From Gammaproteobacteria bacterium (lineage in GTDB: Bacteria > Pseudomonadota > Gammaproteobacteria > Steroidobacterales > PWYM01): a stretch of 64,000 nucleotides of DNA. Position 1 is the stretch's first letter; the number at the start of each line of letters is the position of its first letter. Position numbers and translations under genes: made by a program. Under the pieces are notes generated by a model. The model saw nothing but the letters and a program-made list of their open reading frames with translations. It was not told the DNA's origin and searched no databases. Positions 305 to 31,707 of this stretch are shown here, piece by piece. The DNA lies in NCBI GenBank assembly GCA_003567855.1, contig PWYM01000237.1:5302-69301 (forward strand). Reading direction: 5' to 3'.

Positions 305-3300
305 TTACATGTTGCGGCGGTATTCGCCGCCCACCTCGTAGAGCGCGTGCGAGATCTGCCCGAGCGAACAGGTCTTCACCGCGTCCATCAGTGACTCGAA
401 CACGTTGCCACGCGCGCGGGCGACGCTGCGAAGGCGGTCCAGGGCTTCACGCGCCTCCGCCTCGTGGCACGCCTGGAAGGCCTGCACGGCACGGATCTGG
501 TCTTCCTTCTCATCGTCGGTGGAACGCATCAGCTCCAGCGTGTCGACTTTCTCCTCCTGGCCTTCCTTGGGCAGGTAGGTGTTCACGCCGATGAGCGGCA
601 GGCTGCCGTCGTGCTTCTTCGCCTCATAGTAGAGGCTTTCGTCCTGGATCTTGCCGCGCTGGTACATCGTATCCATTGCGCCGAGTACGCCACCGCGCTC
701 TGAAATGCGTTCGAATTCCTGGTAGACCGCCTCCTCGACGAGATTGGTGAGTTCCTCGACGATGAACGACCCCTGCCACGGGTTCTCGCAGAAGTTGAGC
801 CCCAGTTCGCGATTGATGATCAGCTGGATCGCGACCGCGCGGCGCACCGAAGCCTCGGTAGGCGTGGTGATCGCCTCGTCATAGGCGTTGGTATGCAGGC
901 TGTTGCAATTGTCGAACAGCGCATACAGCGCCTGTAGCGTGGTGCGGATGTCGTTGAAACTGATCTCCTGCGCGTGCAGCGATCGCCCGGAGGTCTGGAT
1001 GTGATATTTCATCATCTGGCTGCGCGCCGAGGCACCATAGCGCTCACGCATCGCACGCGCCCAGATGCGACGCGCGACGCGGCCGATCACGGTGTACTCG
1101 GGGTCCATGCCGTTGGAGAAGAAAAACGACAGGTTCGCCGCGAAGTCGTCGATGTTCATGCCTCGCGACAGGTAGTACTCGACGATCGTGAAGCCATTGG
1201 AGAGCGTGAACGCAAGCTGTGAGATCGGGTTCGCGCCGGCCTCTGCGATGTGGTAGCCGCTGATCGAGATCGAGTAGTAGTTTCGGACCTTGTGCTCGAT
1301 GAAGTGCGCCTGCACGTCGCCCATCATCTTCATCGCGAACTCTGTGGAGAAGATGCAGGTGTTCTGGGCCTGGTCCTCCTTGAGGATGTCAGCCTGCACG
1401 GTGCCGCGCACCTGCGACATCGTCTCTGCGGCGATGCGCGCGTAAGTCTCGGCGTCGACCACCTTGTCGCCGGAAATGCCCAGCAGCCCCAGGCCGAGGC
1501 CGTCGTTACCCTCGGGCAGTTCACCGTTGTAACTCGGCCGCGGCTTGCCTTCGAAATAGGCGTCGACAACCTTCTGCGCCTCGTCCCAGCGGCCCTGCTC
1601 GCGCAGGTACTTCTCGACCTGCTGGTCGATCGCGGTGTTCATGAAAAAAGCCAGAATCATCGGTGCCGGGCCGTTGATCGTCATCGACACTGAAGTCGTC
1701 GGGGCGCACAGGTCGAAACCCGAATAAAGCTTCTTCATGTCGTCGACGGTGGCGATCGATACACCGGAGTTGCCGACCTTGCCGTAGATGTCAGGGCGAT
1801 GGTGCGGGTCTTCGCCGTAGAGGGTCACCGAGTCGAACGCGGTGGACAGCCGCGCCGCGGGTTGGCCCAGCGAGAGATAGTGGAACCTGCGGTTGGTCCG
1901 CTCCGGCGTGCCTTCGCCGGCGAACATGCGCGTCGGGTCCTCGCCGGCGCGCCGGTACGGGTAGACGCCGCCGGTGTAGGGATACCCACCGGGCAGGTTT
2001 TCCATCATCAGGAACTTGAGCAGATCACCCCAGTCGCGGTAGGTTGGCGGTGCGATCTTCGGGATACGCTGGCGGCTCAGGGACTCGCGGTAGTTGTCGC
2101 CGGTGATCTCGCGCCCGCGCACGGTGTAGCTGTAGGTGTCGCTGCGCACGCCCTCGAGGCGTTCCGGCCACTCCTTGAGGAGCTTCAGCGCGTCGGGTGA
2201 CAAAGACTCGAGCGTCTGCTGATAGCGCTGGCGCAGATTGCGCAGCGTCGCGTCGACGTCCTCATCGGAGAGCGCGTCACGCGCGTAGGCCTCTAAAGCC
2301 CCGGGGCGCGCCGGATCCTCGAGTTCACCCAGCACCTCGAAGAAATCCTGCAGCCTGCCGGCGGCGTCGGCCTCGGCGAGGATACCCTCGTTGATGGCAC
2401 GCCCCTGCTCGGCGATTTCGGCCAGGTAGCGCAGGCGGTTGCCGGGAATCATCACCGAGGCCTTCGGTGACTTTTCCGTGGTGTCGATCTCCGGCGTCCA
2501 GCGTTCGGTATCGAGGGACAGGTACTCCGCCATCCGCTGGCAGAGATTCACGAACATCCATGTGGTGCCGGGATCGTTGAACTGGCTTGCGATCGTCGGG
2601 TAGACCGGGACCTGGTCGTTGTCCATGTCGAATGCCAGCCGATTGCGCTTCCACTGCTTGCGCACGTCGCGGAGCGCGTCTTCCGCGCCCTTCTTGTCGA
2701 ACTTGTTCAGCACCACGAGCTGGGCGAAATCGAGCATGTCGATCTTCTCGAGCTGGCTCGCCGCGCCGTAGTCGCTGGTCATCACGTAGACCGGGAAGTC
2801 GACGAGATCGACGATTTCGGTGTCGGACTGGCCGATACCGGCGGTCTCGACGATGATCAGGTCGAACCCGCTCGAGCGCAGGTAAGCGACGCAGTCACCA
2901 AGCACCTCGCTGGTGGCCAGGTGCTGGCGGCGCGTGGCCATGGAGCGCATGAACACGCGCTCCGAGCGCAGCGAATTCATGCGGATGCGGTCACCCAGCA
3001 GCGCGCCGCCGGTGCGCCGGCGAGTAGGGTCGACGGCGAGCACGGCAATTCTCATCTCTGGGAAACAGCTGAGGAATCGGTTCAGCAGTTCGTCGGTGAC
3101 CGAGCTCTTGCCGGCGCCGCCGGTGCCGGTGATGCCGAGCACCGGCACCTTGCCGGCACGCATCTCCCATTCCTTGCGCAGGCGACGCAGGTCGTGCTCG
3201 TCGATGCGGGCCGCCTCGAGCTGCGAGAGCACCGCGGCGATGCCGATCGTGGAGTCGGCCTCGGGATCAAACTCGGCGGGTCTGCGGTCGCGTCGGGCCA

Positions 3301-3754
3301 GCTGCGTGCGTTCGACGAGATCCTCGATCATCGCCTGCAGGCCCATCTTCATCCCGTCATTGGGGTGATAGACGCGCTCTACGCCATACTCGTGAAGTTC
3401 CGCGATCTCGTCGAGCGTAATGGTGCCACCGCCGCCACCGAAGACGCGGATATGCTCCGCGCCGTGCTCGCGCAGCATGTCGACCATGTATTTGAAGTAC
3501 TCCATGTGACCGCCCTGGTACGAGGAGATCGCGATGCCGTCGGCGTCCTCCTGGAGGGCGGCCTGTACGACGTCGGACACGCTCCGGTTGTGCCCCAGGT
3601 GCACCACCTCGGCGCCCTGAGCCTGGATCAGCCGGCGCATGATGTTGATCGCGGCATCGTGGCCGTCGAACAGTGACGCGGCGGTGACGAAGCGCAGCGG
3701 CGCCGCGCTCTTCTGATCACCGGCGCTGGGCAGATCGCTTGCAGCAGTACTCAT
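305..3754 (-). CDS. icmF: Fused isobutyryl-CoA mutase (B12-binding domain + MeaB-like G-protein + mutase domain)
   Basis: 1149 aa. N-terminal B12-binding motif ([13 protein letters not shown]), central GTPase P-loop ([19 protein letters not shown]), and a long C-terminal methylmalonyl-CoA-mutase-like catalytic domain. This architecture is diagnostic of IcmF. Confidence 0.93.
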
Positions 3755-27307: not shown

Positions 27308-27631
27308 TCAGAACTTCAGCCGGCCGGTAAGCAGCTCCCAGAACATGCGGAAGTCGCCGAGCAGACTGTAGAGGGGATGGGTGAAAGTGGCCGGTCGGTT
27401 GCGCTCGAAGAAGAAGTGGCCGGCCCAAGCGAAGCCGTACCCGGCGACCGGCATGACGAGCAGCCACCACGGGTTCCATGTGACGACGGCAGCGACCGCG
27501 ATCAGGATCACCAGTGCCGTGCCCGCGAAGTGCAGGCGCCGGGACGTGCTGTGCCGGTGTTCCGACAGGTAGTACGGATAGAACTCGGTAAAGCTCGAAA
27601 ACCGCTGACCCGGCTGCTGATGGGCATCCAT
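27308..27631 (-). CDS. DUF962 (Mpo1-like) family protein
   Basis: 107 aa with FYPYYLSEHRHSTSRRLHFAGT and two TM segments, typical of DUF962. Confidence 0.7.
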   Translation of the reverse strand: MDAHQQPGQRFSSFTEFYPYYLSEHRHSTSRRLHFAGTALVILIAVAAVVTWNPWWLLVMPVAGYGFAWAGHFFFERNRPATFTHPLYSLLGDFRMFWELLTGRLKF

Positions 27632-27683: not shown

Positions 27684-28529
27684 CTAAAGGGCGCGTTCGA
27701 GCCGATTCAGCCATTCACGGGGATGAGGTGCGGCCGGATCCCGCGCGCGCTCGGCAAGCGCCCATGACCAGGACAGCAGCCGGACCAGCCGCTCGACGTC
27801 AGCGAGTTCACGCCGCGCTGCCGGCAACAGCCCGTTCGCGGCCAGCAGCCGATCCCGCTCCCGGCCGGCGAGCGGCGTGAGCGCGGTGATGCACGCGAGG
27901 TCGAAACGCCTGTCGAACGGCGCCGCGTACTCCCAGTCGACCAGCATCGGCTCGGGCCAGCCGACGACGTTCGCCGGCACGAGGTCATTGTGCGCGAGGC
28001 GGCTGCAGTCCGCGTCGCTGACGAAGTCTTCCAGCTCGCGCGCGAGTGCCGCCAGCCGCACCGCGATTGCGGGGGTGTCGCGCACTGCTGCCGGCAGCGC
28101 TTCGCTGTAGGCCCGCGCGGCGCGCACAGGATCGAACACCGGCATATCGAGTTCGACCGAGTGGAGCATCTCGAGCTTTCGCGCCAGTGCTTCCGCGCCG
28201 GCGGCACAGCCGAGTTCGGCGGGCGACCATGCAGGGTCATCGATCCAGCGCGTGACCAGTCCGCCGTCCTCGCCGAAGTACAGGAGCTCCGGCGCAATGC
28301 CAACGGCCGCCACCCGCGCGAGCACACGGCCCTCGTCGGCGATCGACGTTGCGAACCTTGGTGCCAGTGGCGCAAGCCGCGCGAGCAGCGCCCCTTCGCG
28401 GCTTTGTACCCGGTAAACGCGGTGTCGGGCAGAGGCGACACGCTCGGCGCCCCACCAGCCCTGCACGTTCGCGCGTGCGAGCAATGTCCCCAGCGCGGGA
28501 TCCGGAACAGGCGTACCGGAGCCGTTCAC
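27684..28529 (-). CDS. APH/choline-kinase-family phosphotransferase, candidate thiamine kinase
   Basis: Brenner motif LAHNDLVPANVV followed by LVDWEYA. The GTG start overlaps the PnuC stop (GTGA). It is the last gene of the TPP-riboswitch operon, and E. coli ThiK belongs to this fold family. Confidence 0.65.
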   Translation of the reverse strand: MNGSGTPVPDPALGTLLARANVQGWWGAERVASARHRVYRVQSREGALLARLAPLAPRFATSIADEGRVLARVAAVGIAPELLYFGEDGGLVTRWIDDPAWSPAELGCAAGAEALARKLEMLHSVELDMPVFDPVRAARAYSEALPAAVRDTPAIAVRLAALARELEDFVSDADCSRLAHNDLVPANVVGWPEPMLVDWEYAAPFDRRFDLACITALTPLAGRERDRLLAANGLLPAARRELADVERLVRLLSWSWALAERARDPAAPHPREWLNRLERAL

Positions 28530-29140
28530 GCCGTCGCCTGCGCGAACTCACGCCGGACGAGATCACGTCGCCACGCGATGTAGCCGAACACGATGATCAC
28601 GAGGTAGGCGCCGAACAGCAGTGCCGTCAGGTACAGCTCGCGGCTGAGATAGAGATAGATGTTGAGCGCGTCGATCACGAACCAGTACAGCCAGTTCTCG
28701 AGCACCTTGCGGGCGATCATGAAGGTTGCGACCAGACTCGCCCAGGTCGTGAACGAGTCGAGGTACGGCAGTTCCGCATCGGTCCAGCCGCTCAACCACC
28801 AGCCGCTTGCCAGGCTCGCGGTGATGACGCAGACGAGCACGTACAGGTGCCGACGCACCGGCCAGACCGAGACCCGCACCCCGGCGCCTCCCGCACCCCC
28901 GCGCGTCCACTGGTGCCAACCGTAAATGGCCATCACCATGTAGAACAGCTGCAGCCCGGACTCCATGTACAGCCGCGCCGACGCGAACACGAACAGGAAA
29001 ATCGTCGTGCTGACCAGCGCCGCCGGCCAGCAGAGGATGTTCTGGCGCACCGCCAGCAGCAGGTAGGCCACCGCCAGCACCACCGCCGTGGCCTCCCACA
29101 GGTTCACCGCCTGCGCCGCAGCGAGCAGCGGGTCGATCAC
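28526..29140 (-). CDS. pnuC: PnuC-family transporter (nicotinamide-riboside/thiamine type; the thiamine-type PnuT role is inferred from context)
   Basis: 204 aa, about 7 hydrophobic helices, Trp-rich motifs (YGWHQW, WTDAELPYLDSFTTW, NWLYWFVIDALN) typical of PnuC. The GTG start overlaps the upstream stop (GTGA). Confidence 0.8.
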   Translation of the reverse strand: MIDPLLAAAQAVNLWEATAVVLAVAYLLLAVRQNILCWPAALVSTTIFLFVFASARLYMESGLQLFYMVMAIYGWHQWTRGGAGGAGVRVSVWPVRRHLYVLVCVITASLASGWWLSGWTDAELPYLDSFTTWASLVATFMIARKVLENWLYWFVIDALNIYLYLSRELYLTALLFGAYLVIIVFGYIAWRRDLVRREFAQATA

Positions 29141-29400
29141 GCGTCGGCGCTCCCCGGCGCAAGATCACCGGCGAGAAACTTGGTGACGAATACGGTCTGG
29201 CCGGTGTCGGCGTGCACCCGCGCCATCTCGGCGCACAGCGCCGAGAACACCGCATCGTACTCGCCCGACAATTGGGTGCTGAGCGGGTTGGTCGCGACGC
29301 GCAGGTCGGGATAGGCGTTGAGCCGCTCGATGAACGCCGCGATCGCGGGCCGGAAGTCCTCGGCAAGCGGGTACATGCTGATTTCGACGGTAAGCTTCAT
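29137..29400 (-). CDS. Small YkoF/MTH1187-like (thiamine/HMP-binding, ACT-like) protein
   Basis: 87 aa with the pattern MKLTVEISMYPL...TQLSGEYDAVFSAL...VFVTKF, resembling the thiamine-binding MTH1187/YkoF superfamily. GGAG RBS upstream. Confidence 0.55.
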   Translation of the reverse strand: MKLTVEISMYPLAEDFRPAIAAFIERLNAYPDLRVATNPLSTQLSGEYDAVFSALCAEMARVHADTGQTVFVTKFLAGDLAPGSADA

Positions 29401-29414
29401 TTGGCGCTCCGTGG

Positions 29415-31484
29415 TCAGAAGCCGTAACTGACGGTCACCCCGACCTGGCGCGGATCACCCCGGCGCACGTAGAGGCGGTCGGCGAAATCCGGCGGCTCCA
29501 GCCCGAAGAAGAACCCGCGTACCGCGTAAGTCTGCTGCAGCAGGTTGCGACCCCACGCCGAGACGCTCCAGCGCTCGCCTTCCCAGCCGACCCGGGCATT
29601 GACGAGGTTGTAGCTGCTCGAACGCTGGTCATGACTGTTGGAGAAATAGAACGCGTCGCGTCCGTTGACCTCGACGCGTCCGAACCAGCCACCGGCGTCA
29701 CGATACTCGAGTCCCAGCGAGTACTGGTAGTTCGGCGCGTGGGCCTGGTCACGACCTACCGGGCCGCCCGGAAACTCACGGAACTCGGTCTCCAGGAGGC
29801 CGACCGATGCCAGCAGCCGCCAGTGCGGCATGAACTGCCACGCGACGTCGGCCTCGACCCCGTAGTTGAACCCGCGCGCGGCGTTGTCGGTGAAGAACAC
29901 GAACGACAGCGGGTCGGCCGGATCGACCTGCAGTGAAGTATCGACCTGCTGGTCTCGGCGCAGCATGTAGAACGCCGCGGCATTTGCCTGCAGACGCCCG
30001 TCCAGCCAGCGACCGCGGATGCCGGTTTCGAAGTTCCACAGGTACTCGGTGTCGAACTCGCGCCGGCCCGCGGGAATGGAGAGGCCGAGGTTGAAACCGC
30101 CGGCCTTGTAGCCTCTCGACGCCGACGCGTACGCGGTGAGCGCATCGGTTGCGAACCAGCTCAGCTCCACGGCACCGCCGAGCATGCTCTCACGCGGGTC
30201 GAAATCCAGCCCCTGCGTGTCGCGGTACTGCGCCCGCCGCTGTTCGAGTCGCAGGCCGGTGGTCAGCTGCCAGCGCTCGGCGAGCGAAAAGTCCAGTTCA
30301 CCGAAGATGGCGAGATTGTCCGCGCGGTAGCGGCTGTCGAGCTCGCGGAACACCGCCTCGTTGAACAGGTCGAGGAAGACGTTGTCCTCGCGAAGGCGCA
30401 TCGCGTAGGCGCCGACGATCCAGTCGACGCGCCCGTCGGCGAACCCGGTGCCGGGCTCCGACATCAACCGCAGTTCCTGGTTCCAGGTGCGCCGCCGACG
30501 GTCCGTGCTCGAGAAGAAATCGTACGGCGCGAAGTCTCCCCAGAACGCGTCGTTGCCCCAGTCACCGTCGAAACTCACGAGAATGTCGGAGTCGGCCCAG
30601 CTCGAGATGCTGACGACGCGCACGTCACCGGGCACCCAGTTCACGCGCAGCGAGGACGCGCGCGATTCCTGCACATCGCGTCCGGGGCGGTCGGACTGCG
30701 TCGTGAAGCTGTTATCGACCGCGAAGGCGTCGTAGCCGTTGTCCAGATCCACCCACATCAGCGTCAGGTCGACCTGCAGCGTATCGTCAGGTTCGAAGCG
30801 CAGGCGGCCGCGTGTCGTCAGTTCGTCCCGGTTGTTCGTATCGCTGCGATCGAGGAACGCGTTGTACCGGAAACCGTCACTTTTCCAGCGGTGCGCCGCG
30901 ATGCGATAGCTGAACCGGTCGTCGATCGGGCCGCCGAAGGCCACCCCCGCGGCGCGGACGTTGTCACCGCCTACGGTGAGTTCGCTGTCGAACTCGAACT
31001 CATCACCCGGCGCACGGGAACGCATGTAGACGAGCCCGGCCAGCGCATTTGCGCCGTATCGCGTGCCCTGCGGCCCCCGCAGCACCTCGACCTGTTCCAT
31101 GTCGAACAGCGTCGCCACGGTACCGATGCCACTGAAGTCGACATCGTCGATGATGAAACCCACCGACGGGTTCGGCGCGCCCTCGTACTGGCTGCGCTCG
31201 CCGATGCCGCGAAGCTGCAGGAAGCGCGGCCGCGACGATTCTCCGGACCAGTTCAGGTTCGGCACCAGCATCAGCAGGTCCTCGAAATGCTGCACGCCGG
31301 CATCGGCGAGCAGACGCTCATCGAGCACGGTGATGCTGCCGGCGATACGGTCGAGGGTGTCGCTGCGGAAATCGGCGGTGACGACGATCTCCTCGAGCGG
31401 CGGGCGGTCGGCGGCGAGCGCCGGCGCGCTCGCGAGCGCGGCCGCGACGCCGAGCGTGGCGGGCTTGATGAATGCACGGGACAT
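29415..31484 (-). CDS. TonB-dependent receptor (TBDR-2), TPP-riboswitch controlled
   Basis: Signal peptide (...SAPALAAD), plug motifs (EEIVVTADF, VEVLRGPQGTRYGANALAGLV), barrel, and terminal ...VTVSYGF. It lies directly downstream of the riboswitch. Confidence 0.92.
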   Translation of the reverse strand: MSRAFIKPATLGVAAALASAPALAADRPPLEEIVVTADFRSDTLDRIAGSITVLDERLLADAGVQHFEDLLMLVPNLNWSGESSRPRFLQLRGIGERSQYEGAPNPSVGFIIDDVDFSGIGTVATLFDMEQVEVLRGPQGTRYGANALAGLVYMRSRAPGDEFEFDSELTVGGDNVRAAGVAFGGPIDDRFSYRIAAHRWKSDGFRYNAFLDRSDTNNRDELTTRGRLRFEPDDTLQVDLTLMWVDLDNGYDAFAVDNSFTTQSDRPGRDVQESRASSLRVNWVPGDVRVVSISSWADSDILVSFDGDWGNDAFWGDFAPYDFFSSTDRRRRTWNQELRLMSEPGTGFADGRVDWIVGAYAMRLREDNVFLDLFNEAVFRELDSRYRADNLAIFGELDFSLAERWQLTTGLRLEQRRAQYRDTQGLDFDPRESMLGGAVELSWFATDALTAYASASRGYKAGGFNLGLSIPAGRREFDTEYLWNFETGIRGRWLDGRLQANAAAFYMLRRDQQVDTSLQVDPADPLSFVFFTDNAARGFNYGVEADVAWQFMPHWRLLASVGLLETEFREFPGGPVGRDQAHAPNYQYSLGLEYRDAGGWFGRVEVNGRDAFYFSNSHDQRSSSYNLVNARVGWEGERWSVSAWGRNLLQQTYAVRGFFFGLEPPDFADRLYVRRGDPRQVGVTVSYGF

Positions 31485-31512
31485 GGATCTCTCCTGCTGG
31501 CAAAAGAGATCC
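31485..31512 (-). promoter_or_regulatory. Riboswitch expression platform: hairpin overlapping the Shine-Dalgarno sequence
   Basis: On the minus strand, GGAUCUCU-uuugccagcagg-AGAGAUCC lies immediately before the AUG (31484). The SD AGGAG (31495-31491) lies in the loop and 3' arm. Confidence 0.6.
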
Positions 31513-31547
31513 GGTTACAACTGCGCGGGAGGTGCTGGGTAAGGCGG

Positions 31548-31647
31548 CCTCGTCCCTACGCCGGTACTAACCGGATCAGGTTCAACGGGTTGGCTGCTGT
31601 GCCGACGGGCCGGCAGCCTCTCAGGTCCGTTCAGACCACCCCGGAGG
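31548..31647 (-). promoter_or_regulatory. TPP (THI-box) riboswitch aptamer
   Basis: The minus strand reads CCUCCGGGGUGGUCUGAACGGACCUGAGAGGCUGCC...CAGCCAACCCGUUGAACCUGAUCCGGUUAGUACCGGCGUAGGGACGAGG. It contains the invariant GGGGUG, CUGAGA, ACCC..GAACCUGAUCCGG.UA.UACCGGCGUAGGGA blocks. Confidence 0.9.
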
Positions 31648-31707
31648 AAGAGTGAACTCTAAAGCACGTGAAGCGCCCGCTCAAGCGGCGCCGGGCAGCG
31701 CAGCGAG

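Follow-up and report, generated by a model that had tools for sequence, protein, structure and literature searches.

The 64-kb window analyzed here, i.e., the whole stretch of DNA (67% GC), carries on its minus strand a thiamine pyrophosphate (TPP) riboswitch followed by four genes, hereafter the cassette, which had been proposed in an initial annotation to be an operon for thiamine salvage. The window DNA matches the GenBank contigs of metagenome-assembled genomes (MAGs) GCA_003560115.1 and GCA_007136465.1, and a source-given name is absent for all three cassette proteins that were looked up (receptor, small protein and kinase). The features of the locus are the following, in the order in which the minus strand is read.

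31656..31684, minus strand: candidate sigma-70-like promoter (TTGAGC at 31684-31679, 17-nt spacer, TAGAGT at 31661-31656)
31535..31653, minus strand: TPP (THI-box) aptamer, RF00059 (72.3 bits, gathering score 54.3, E = 2.8e-12)
31568..31577, minus strand: aptamer segment GAUCCGGUUA, 5' strand of P4/P5 plus loop, proposed anti-sequestor partner in the TPP-free state
31508..31517, minus strand: platform segment UAACCGGAUC, proposed anti-sequestor strand, overlapping the first 5 nt of the sequestor 5' arm
31485..31512, minus strand: hairpin sequestering the Shine-Dalgarno (SD) sequence (5' arm 31512-31501, loop 31500-31497, 3' arm 31496-31485)
29415..31484, minus strand: TonB-dependent outer-membrane receptor (TBDR) of the Omr1 type, 689 aa, Plug and TonB_dep_Rec_b-barrel domains
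29137..29400, minus strand: YkoF/MTH1187-fold small protein, 87 aa, PF07615 above cut-off
28526..29140, minus strand: Pnu-family facilitator, assigned as PnuT, 204 aa, PF04973, GTG start
27684..28529, minus strand: choline-kinase/APH-fold, ThiK-like kinase, 281 aa, PF01633, GTG start

The four genes named in the initial annotation (a TBDR, an 87-aa YkoF-like protein, a Pnu transporter and an APH-fold kinase) are all present, and Pfam placed them in the right families. The coupling of the last three genes by GTGA start/stop overlaps could likewise be read directly from the sequence at both junctions, between the small gene and the Pnu gene (29140-29137) and between the Pnu gene and the kinase gene (28529-28526). 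The GC content at third codon positions of all four open reading frames (ORFs) was 0.79-0.91, which is typical of real genes in this DNA. The cassette sits behind moaB, with a gap of 54 nt between moaB and the aptamer. No other thiamine gene was found in the window among the families listed (25 of 76).

The distribution of the cassette was determined using the 87-aa protein as the probe and scanning one genome per species. The protein was present in 288 species, and the counts given here cover the best 80 loci, in which cassettes were called using tblastn, a hidden Markov model of the kinase, Pfam and a covariance model. These loci come from Microbulbifer, Zhongshania, Shewanella, Parashewanella, Marinobacter, Gallaecimonas, Porticoccaceae, Steroidobacteraceae, SAR86, Oceanospirillum and Saprospiraceae. 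The order riboswitch-TBDR-small gene-Pnu gene-kinase gene, as in the window, was found in at least 42 of the 80 loci, and the same cassette without the TBDR in 16. Seven loci have the riboswitch, TBDR, small gene and Pnu gene with a failed ORF-based kinase call (tblastn detected a kinase in four of them), and ten have the small gene alone. The small gene lies directly upstream of the Pnu gene in 69 loci, and a TPP aptamer precedes the first cassette gene in 68. The recurrence in at least 58 of the 80 loci indicates that the cassette is a widespread conserved unit and not a peculiarity of the window genome. The four-gene arrangement, initially described as poorly characterized experimentally, is thus a common one.

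A TPP riboswitch at the head of the cassette is firmly identified. The THI-box aptamer that had been read at 31647-31548 lies inside the RF00059 match, and all the sequence blocks quoted for it are present. The match is full-length (model positions 1-105 of 105), well above the gathering score of the family, and the sole Rfam match in the window. The aptamer also scored 90.1 bits with our own covariance model R1, built from twelve Rfam-confirmed aptamers, and it ends 50 nt ahead of the start codon (AUG) of the first cassette gene, on the same strand. The identity of the riboswitch is established from these matches, and it is predicted to bind TPP. A sigma-70 promoter scan of the leader found no site reaching the threshold of 9 of 12 consensus positions. 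The candidate promoter listed above, situated in the gap between moaB and the aptamer, was read by eye and agrees at 8 of the 12 positions; with low confidence, it would put the transcription start near the first base of the aptamer stem P1.

Downstream of the aptamer, a hairpin had been described that overlaps the SD and abuts the AUG, suggesting translational control. The hairpin exists, but its stem is 12 bp long and not 8 bp. It pairs GGAUCUCUUUUG with CAGGAGAGAUCC across a CCAG loop, spanning the whole SD (AGGAGA, 31495-31490) and stopping one base before the AUG at 31484. The calculated energy was -17.3 kcal/mol for the hairpin alone and -23.4 kcal/mol for the fold of the platform (z = -2.05), and the SD had an unpaired probability of at most 0.06 in the full-leader ensemble. 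The sequestor is kept in nine leaders with compensatory changes, which occur in three lineages at stem positions 8-10 (U-A, A-U and C-G). Its pairs were counted directly because differing loop lengths mis-registered the 3' arms in the MAFFT alignment. No terminator-like site was found in the leader, the sole site detected lying inside the TBDR gene, and terminator-based transcriptional control was therefore rejected.

The platform also contains a possible route for releasing the SD. The segment UAACCGGAUC is the exact 10-nt complement of GAUCCGGUUA in the aptamer. In the window, this 10-mer is confined to these two sites (0.02 expected by chance), and a 10-nt complement was reached in none of 200 leader shuffles. 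When the anti-sequestor pairing was forced, the fold had an energy of -70.0 kcal/mol compared with -71.2 kcal/mol for the minimum-free-energy fold, and the 12-bp sequestor was cut to a weak 7-bp stem containing two G-U pairs. The leader is therefore predicted to have two nearly isoenergetic states, with far weaker shielding of the SD in one of them. Shewanella, Parashewanella, Gallaecimonas and Marinobacter have a homologous segment, (A)GCCGGAUC. CCGGAUC opens the 5' arm of an SD-burying hairpin that ends 0-2 nt before the AUG in seven Shewanella/Parashewanella leaders as well as in Gallaecimonas. The aptamer and platform segments covary, with GGUUA/UAACC versus GGC(U)/(A)GCC. An anti-sequestor to P4/P5 as a universal device was rejected, the pairing being confined to the window lineage, Shewanellaceae, Gallaecimonas and Marinobacter. 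Together, the conserved SD sequestor with its compensatory changes and the 10-nt complement agree with the translational control that had been proposed, which is well supported in silico.

Two other kinds of leader were observed among the relatives. At the TBDR-less loci of Steroidobacteraceae and unclassified gammaproteobacterial MAGs (L045, 5902-6010; similarly L005, L049, L052, L055-L058, L060, L064-L066, L070 and L071), the aptamer match extends as far as, or into, the small gene's start codon. In the one such leader that was read, that of L045, the 3' strand of P1 (GCAGGUGAAAUG) contains the SD, and this leader would be a minimal riboswitch without a separate expression platform. In Oceanicoccus (L025, 202-3820), two TPP riboswitches stand back to back, one leading to the salvage cassette and the other to a divergent thiC-thiO operon, which indicates that the carriers of the cassette are not all auxotrophs.

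The first gene encodes a TBDR with a Plug domain (PF07715, 53.6 bits) and a beta-barrel domain (PF00593, 123.9 bits). A signal peptide (...APALA, followed by AD) and a TonB box (EEIVVTA) were read from the translation. Its scores stayed below the cut-offs of all curated equivalogs for siderophores, B12 and haem. The identity to the cassette-heading TBDRs of 50 other loci is 33-46%, and the closest solved structure is that of the pesticin receptor FyuA (PDB ID 4epa). In a Baltic Sea metatranscriptome, omr1 was among the more highly expressed genes of vitamin B1 uptake (PMC12442306).

The third gene encodes a Pnu-family protein that matches PF04973 with 173.9 bits over profile positions 2-175 of 175. 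It is 44% identical over the full length (E = 4e-51) to P0240, the corresponding protein of the Shewanella woodyi cassette. P0240 is presumed to be the published S. woodyi PnuT (PnuT-Sw), as the paper describing that protein (PMC5749112) gives no locus tag. Purified S. woodyi PnuT mediates facilitated diffusion of thiamine (Kd 12 µM, Km 14 µM), binds and transports thiamine, pyrithiamine and oxythiamine, and does not bind thiamine monophosphate (TMP) or TPP (PMC5749112). This selectivity is the basis for trapping by phosphorylation. The match of the window protein to the structure of the nicotinamide riboside transporter PnuC (4qtn) was 31.6 bits. Although the PnuC equivalog cut-off of TIGR01528 was passed (60.2 vs 42.45 bits), a second PnuC model, NF011926, failed (59 vs 335 bits). 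Because of this failure and the thiamine-specific context, we regard the TIGR01528 pass as a false-positive name. No NadR-type ribosylnicotinamide kinase was found in the window cassette, where the adjoining kinase is ThiK-like. The window transporter was assigned, on this comparative basis, as the thiamine transporter PnuT.

The database names of such proteins are different. All source-named Shewanella homologs listed are called PnuC or nicotinamide mononucleotide/riboside transporter, except for one 'putative Transporter'. More generally, NCBI and UniRef label riboswitch-linked thiamine-type Pnu proteins 'nicotinamide riboside transporter PnuC' or similar (about 120 top matches, mostly Shewanella; e.g., L090, 5001-5639). 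This looks like a systematic misannotation, which would mislead predictions of vitamin auxotrophy from metagenomes.

The kinase encoded by the last gene matched PF01633 (Choline_kinase) with 33.5 bits at a cut-off of 29. Its AlphaFold2 (AF2) model had a pLDDT of 80.7, and a Foldseek search using this model revealed choline/ethanolamine kinases as the top hits, with a TM-score of 0.75 for pneumococcal LicA. Across 31 aligned sequences, with E. coli ThiK among them, H180 and D182 of the motif H180-x-D182-x4-N187 are invariant and N187 is nearly so, D198 and E200 of D198-W-E200 are invariant, and the ChoK-type Arg51 and the helix-C Glu66 are invariant and nearly invariant, respectively. These conserved catalytic residues suggest that the kinase is catalytically competent. 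The curated ThiK model was in the top two matches for the window kinase and for all six cassette kinases tested from other loci; the six scored 27-118 bits against it, and the E. coli ThiK control gave 338 and 554 bits. A tblastn search with E. coli ThiK found 13 cassette kinases with 24-29% identity, and BLASTP of the window kinase against E. coli ThiK gave a 36-aa match around the catalytic loop only. The fold claimed for this protein, an APH-type kinase of the choline-kinase/ThiK kind, therefore stands, but membership of the ThiK family proper does not, the score with TIGR02721 being 38.1 bits against a cut-off of 299.45. We conclude that the window kinase is ThiK-like and not a ThiK equivalog, with a predicted activity of converting thiamine to TMP. 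At about residues 33-43 (28400-28430), its sequence is SARHRVYRV, in place of the glycine-rich nucleotide loop of the GGLTNxSY type that E. coli ThiK and nearly all relatives possess.

The genomic neighborhood provides a further link between the cassette kinases and ThiK. The cassette directly follows hinT and DUF1425/ycfL in S. woodyi, in five other Shewanella species and in Marinobacter nauticus, and it follows hinT alone in Gallaecimonas (hinT/ycfL loci: L090, 188-2009; L053, L059, L069, L072, L084 and L085, about 1500-3500; L041, 3393-3737; L089, 1886-4085). In E. coli, the gene order is hinT-ycfL-lpoB-thiK. This shared neighborhood hints at the origin of E. coli thiK. It suggests that enterobacterial thiK is a positional ortholog of the cassette kinase gene, and perhaps a relic of it.

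The 87-aa protein encoded by the second gene belongs to the YkoF fold. Of the two families suggested for it initially, PF07615 (Ykof) scored 25.1 bits against a cut-off of 21, whereas PF01910 stayed below its cut-off (22.9 vs 24.9 bits). A profile of the small-protein family matched both repeats of B. subtilis YkoF (E = 2.3e-8) as well as MJ1052, SP2199 and TM0486. The AF2 model (pLDDT 90.6) shows a ferredoxin-like beta-alpha-beta-beta-alpha-beta fold, and a Foldseek search using it revealed similarity (TM-scores of 0.71-0.80) with TM0486, MJ1052, SP2199, MTH1187 and the YkoF-thiamin complex (PDB IDs 1vk8, 2eky, 2ibo, 1lxn and 1sbr). The N-terminal motif E-I-S-M-Y(-P) is invariant in the family, and its S-M-Y-P aligns with the S-L-Y-P and A-L-Y-P of the two YkoF repeats. 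The protein is a single domain without the tandem two-domain architecture of YkoF, and it has no signal peptide, suggesting that it is cytoplasmic. YkoF itself was described as thiamin/hydroxymethylpyrimidine (HMP)-binding in a title (Devedjiev 2004) cited in PMC5037267. The small protein is predicted to be a cytoplasmic binder of thiamine or of its pyrimidine moiety.

The small protein appears to be made together with the transporter. In 50 of 70 loci, the stop codon of its gene overlaps a start codon of the Pnu gene (-8, -4 or -1 nt), and in 66 of the 70 the two genes are at most 20 nt apart; the spacing between the TBDR gene and the small gene is variable (10-525 nt). The tight start/stop overlap points to co-production with the transporter at a fixed ratio. 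In an exhaustive profile search, the 517 family clusters at E ≤ 1e-10 were stand-alone proteins of about 75-140 aa with one matched stretch. Among the top 150 of 939 family matches, none had the small domain fused with a kinase, a transporter or an enzyme. Apparent long ORFs upstream of pnuT in some loci were rejected as fusions, since their reading frame differs from that of the small gene. Full-text literature searches found no paper linking the small protein or a ChoK-type kinase to an omr1/pnuT operon, a mention in the 2002 comparative paper being possible; this agrees with the initial description of the binder as experimentally uncharacterized.

The small gene was also observed in other settings. 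In Porticoccus sp. W117 (L047, 26-6252), it is the last gene of a TPP-riboswitch-led thiC-thiO-thiG-thiS-thiD/E operon, its ATG overlapping the stop codon of thiD/E (TAATG). This biosynthetic operon links the small gene to thiamine independently of transport. In Oceanospirillum, Oleiphilus and Saprospiraceae, the small gene occurs without a riboswitch or a Pnu gene. In the Saprospiraceae (Bacteroidota), it also lacks a TBDR and is overlapped by the following gene, which encodes a conserved multi-pass membrane protein of 180-190 aa without a Pfam match (L075, 6258-6809; L079, 6258-6800; L074, 2529-3107). This protein could be an unrecognized transporter partner.

On the basis of these results, we propose that the operon probably serves the TPP-riboswitch-repressed salvage of external thiamine. 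At high TPP, the aptamer would be bound and P4/P5 locked, so that the 12-bp hairpin would bury the SD of the first gene and block translation of the operon. At low TPP, the platform strand would pair with its aptamer partner, the sequestor would lose 5 bp, and the remaining 7-bp stem would be opened by ribosomes. The Omr1-type TBDR would then pump scarce thiamine into the periplasm using TonB energy, and PnuT would let it diffuse down its gradient across the inner membrane. In the cytoplasm, the ThiK-like kinase is expected to convert thiamine to TMP, which PnuT could not carry back. The small protein, made in a fixed ratio with PnuT through start/stop coupling, would most likely bind the pyrimidine moiety, so as to hold free thiamine at a low level and/or deliver it to the kinase. 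Repression of the operon at high TPP fits uptake and not export. The chain of energized outer-membrane uptake, facilitated inner-membrane diffusion and trapping by phosphorylation had been predicted in the initial annotation, and it is supported by the comparative evidence, i.e., the recurrence of the cassette in at least 58 of the 80 loci and the properties of S. woodyi PnuT.

Several observations weigh against this proposal. The kinase falls far under the cut-off of the ThiK equivalog, with a GntI model scoring slightly higher, and it lacks the glycine-rich GGLTNxSY loop of nearly all its relatives. The window cassette does not have the hinT-ycfL synteny but moaB upstream instead, so that the synteny clue is indirect for the window locus. 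In the forced anti-sequestor state, the SD remains within the 7-bp stem, and the on-state would therefore be relative and not absolute; furthermore, the anti-sequestor complement was not found in the Microbulbifer and Zhongshania leaders. The function of YkoF itself has been called unclear (PMC5037267), and the specificity of omr1 was deemed unclear in marine B1 studies (PMC12442306, PMC10881298).

Instead of intact thiamine, the cargo might be a precursor or breakdown product with the pyrimidine or thiazole moiety, such as HMP, AmMP, FAMP, hydroxyethylthiazole or the carboxylated form of the latter. In this case, the pyrimidine would be the ligand of the small protein, and the substrate of the kinase would be a thiazole-type compound, phosphorylated on its hydroxyethyl group. 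This possibility is in line with the title that terms YkoF thiamin/HMP-binding, with the unclear specificity of omr1, with the Porticoccus small gene adjoining thiD/E, whose products handle HMP(-P), and with the Oceanicoccus cassette beside thiC-thiO, which shows that some carriers need not be auxotrophs. However, thiamine, pyrithiamine and oxythiamine are bound and carried by a PnuT of this cassette type, ThiK is among the curated families closest to the kinase, and the ThiK neighborhood is common to the cassette in several genera. In addition, the known kinases for HMP (ThiD) and thiazole (ThiM) have another, ribokinase-type fold. We therefore consider such a cargo unlikely. Another alternative concerns one component only and leaves the uptake route as proposed: the small protein could be an ACT-like sensor subunit. 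On binding thiamine, TMP or TPP, it would gate PnuT or the kinase allosterically, so that the riboswitch would be complemented by a fast feedback at the post-translational level. Its ferredoxin-like fold is typical of small-molecule-sensing regulatory domains, its translational coupling to pnuT suggests a complex of fixed stoichiometry, and its gene also occurs in a biosynthetic operon and alone, as would a general thiamine-sensing module. Nevertheless, no fusion to a kinase, transporter or enzyme appeared among those top 150 of 939 family matches, and the solved relatives are described only as binders, which makes a sensor role doubtful.

The remaining alternatives concern the transporter. 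That it is a true PnuC, and that the operon imports nicotinamide riboside or another pyridine, would agree with the TIGR01528 pass and with the PnuC/nicotinamide names of all but one of the source-named Shewanella homologs listed. This reading is extremely improbable given that the riboswitch in 68 loci senses TPP and is not NAD-related, that the neighboring kinase is ThiK-like and not of the NadR type, that the S. woodyi homolog matches the protein shown to carry thiamine, and that the match to the structurally characterized PnuC is weak. Jaehme et al. considered a role in release, since a Km of about 14 µM seems too high for picomolar seawater thiamine (PMC5749112). PnuT would in this case mainly let out surplus unphosphorylated thiamine, as overflow or for cross-feeding, and some carriers of the cassette do make thiamine. 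A riboswitch that is off when TPP is abundant is the opposite of an overflow valve, and pnuT is co-transcribed with an energized importer and a trapping kinase in 42 of the 80 species. Neither 'TonB' nor 'outer membrane' is mentioned in that paper, so that the TBDR was left out of account. A release function is thus very unlikely for the transporter of the cassette, and thiamine salvage remains our preferred explanation.

The omr1/pnuT pairing behind a THI element is reportedly an old prediction of comparative genomics, made by Rodionov in 2002. Since then, a transporter of the same cassette type has been characterized and a Bacteroides variant has been tested genetically. The S. woodyi locus (CP000961.1) resembles the window in the order of TPP aptamer (83 bits with our own model), TBDR, 86-aa small protein (44% identical to that of the window, E = 2e-25), Pnu transporter and ChoK/APH kinase. 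The two kinases, however, can barely be aligned beyond the catalytic core (28% identity over 79 aa), and the S. woodyi cassette follows hinT-ycfL whereas that of the window follows moaB. The platform with SD sequestor and anti-sequestor is common to the window and seven other Shewanella/Parashewanella leaders, the S. woodyi leader not being among them. The published study of S. woodyi covers the transporter alone (PMC5749112).

In Bacteroides, riboswitch-linked OMthi (a TBDR) and pnuT are jointly needed for growing at low thiamine (PMC5613172). The Bacteroides OMthi-pnuT-tnr3 operon shares with the window a TPP riboswitch, a TBDR, PnuT and a trapping kinase (PMC5613172; bioRxiv 10.1101/867226). 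Its kinase, Tnr3/TPK, is nevertheless a pyrophosphokinase of another fold that makes TPP directly, whereas TMP is the expected product of the ChoK/ThiK-fold kinase of the window, and no small YkoF-like gene has been reported in the Bacteroides operon. The ykoFEDC operon of B. subtilis likewise contains a soluble cytoplasmic YkoF-fold protein within a TPP-riboswitch thiamine transporter operon. However, YkoF (PDB IDs 1s7h, 1s99 and 1sbr) is a 200-aa tandem of two domains compared with the single 87-aa domain of the window protein, and its partner is an ATP-driven ECF thiamine/HMP transporter and not a passive Pnu facilitator with a kinase.

ThiK (YcfN) of E. coli and Salmonella (TIGR02721, PRK10271) shares with the window kinase the ChoK/APH fold and the motifs H-x-D-x4-N-L and (I/V)-D-W-E-Y-A, and the hinT-ycfL neighborhood is common to E. 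coli thiK and the Shewanella and Marinobacter cassettes. The overall identity of ThiK to the window kinase is, however, about 17%, and E. coli thiK has no adjoining riboswitch, TBDR, small gene or pnuT. PnuC-NadR salvage follows the same principle of a Pnu facilitator and a cytoplasmic kinase that traps the vitamin by phosphorylation. It differs from the window cassette in substrate, kinase family (the RNK domain of NadR) and regulation, and it lacks an outer-membrane receptor and a small binder.

Vitamin B1 synthesis is lacking in most marine and many soil bacteria, which have to take up the vitamin from picomolar concentrations. The window locus and its relatives at no fewer than 58 loci define a full gammaproteobacterial cassette in which two of the four proteins, the YkoF-fold binder and the ThiK-like kinase, are conserved although the searchable literature does not mention them. 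We tentatively suggest, as a possibility beyond the salvage route itself, that PnuT has in the small protein an obligatory partner on the cytoplasmic side, one that captures thiamine as it emerges and hands it to the ThiK-like kinase. If so, the vitamin would build up in the periplasm through the TBDR, and its free cytoplasmic pool would be kept near zero by the binder and the kinase, which would turn the low-affinity PnuT (Km about 14 µM) into the inner-membrane stage of a high-affinity chain. The small protein would then do in the cytoplasm what periplasmic binding proteins do on the other side of the membrane for ABC importers, and it would become clear how PnuT can work as an importer in seawater with picomolar thiamine, a question posed by Jaehme et al. 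Enterobacterial thiK would, as a corollary, be a surviving relic of the cassette. The binder and the kinase thus offer a testable account of how a low-affinity PnuT could work in dilute environments.

Downstream of the kinase gene, on the same strand, lies an Mpo1-like/DUF962 gene (134 bits, 27308-27631, minus strand). It starts 52 nt after the kinase gene with no recognizable terminator between the two, and it may be co-transcribed with the window cassette. It was rejected as a fifth cassette member because it adjoins the kinase gene only in contigs of the same species, other genes taking this place in other genera. Three more TonB-dependent receptors, several TetR regulators and acyl-CoA dehydrogenases are found elsewhere in the window without a link to the cassette. 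The same holds for the gene at the start of the window (305-3754, minus strand), whose 1149-aa product has an IcmF-type architecture, combining in one chain a B12-binding domain, a MeaB-like GTPase and a methylmalonyl-CoA-mutase domain.

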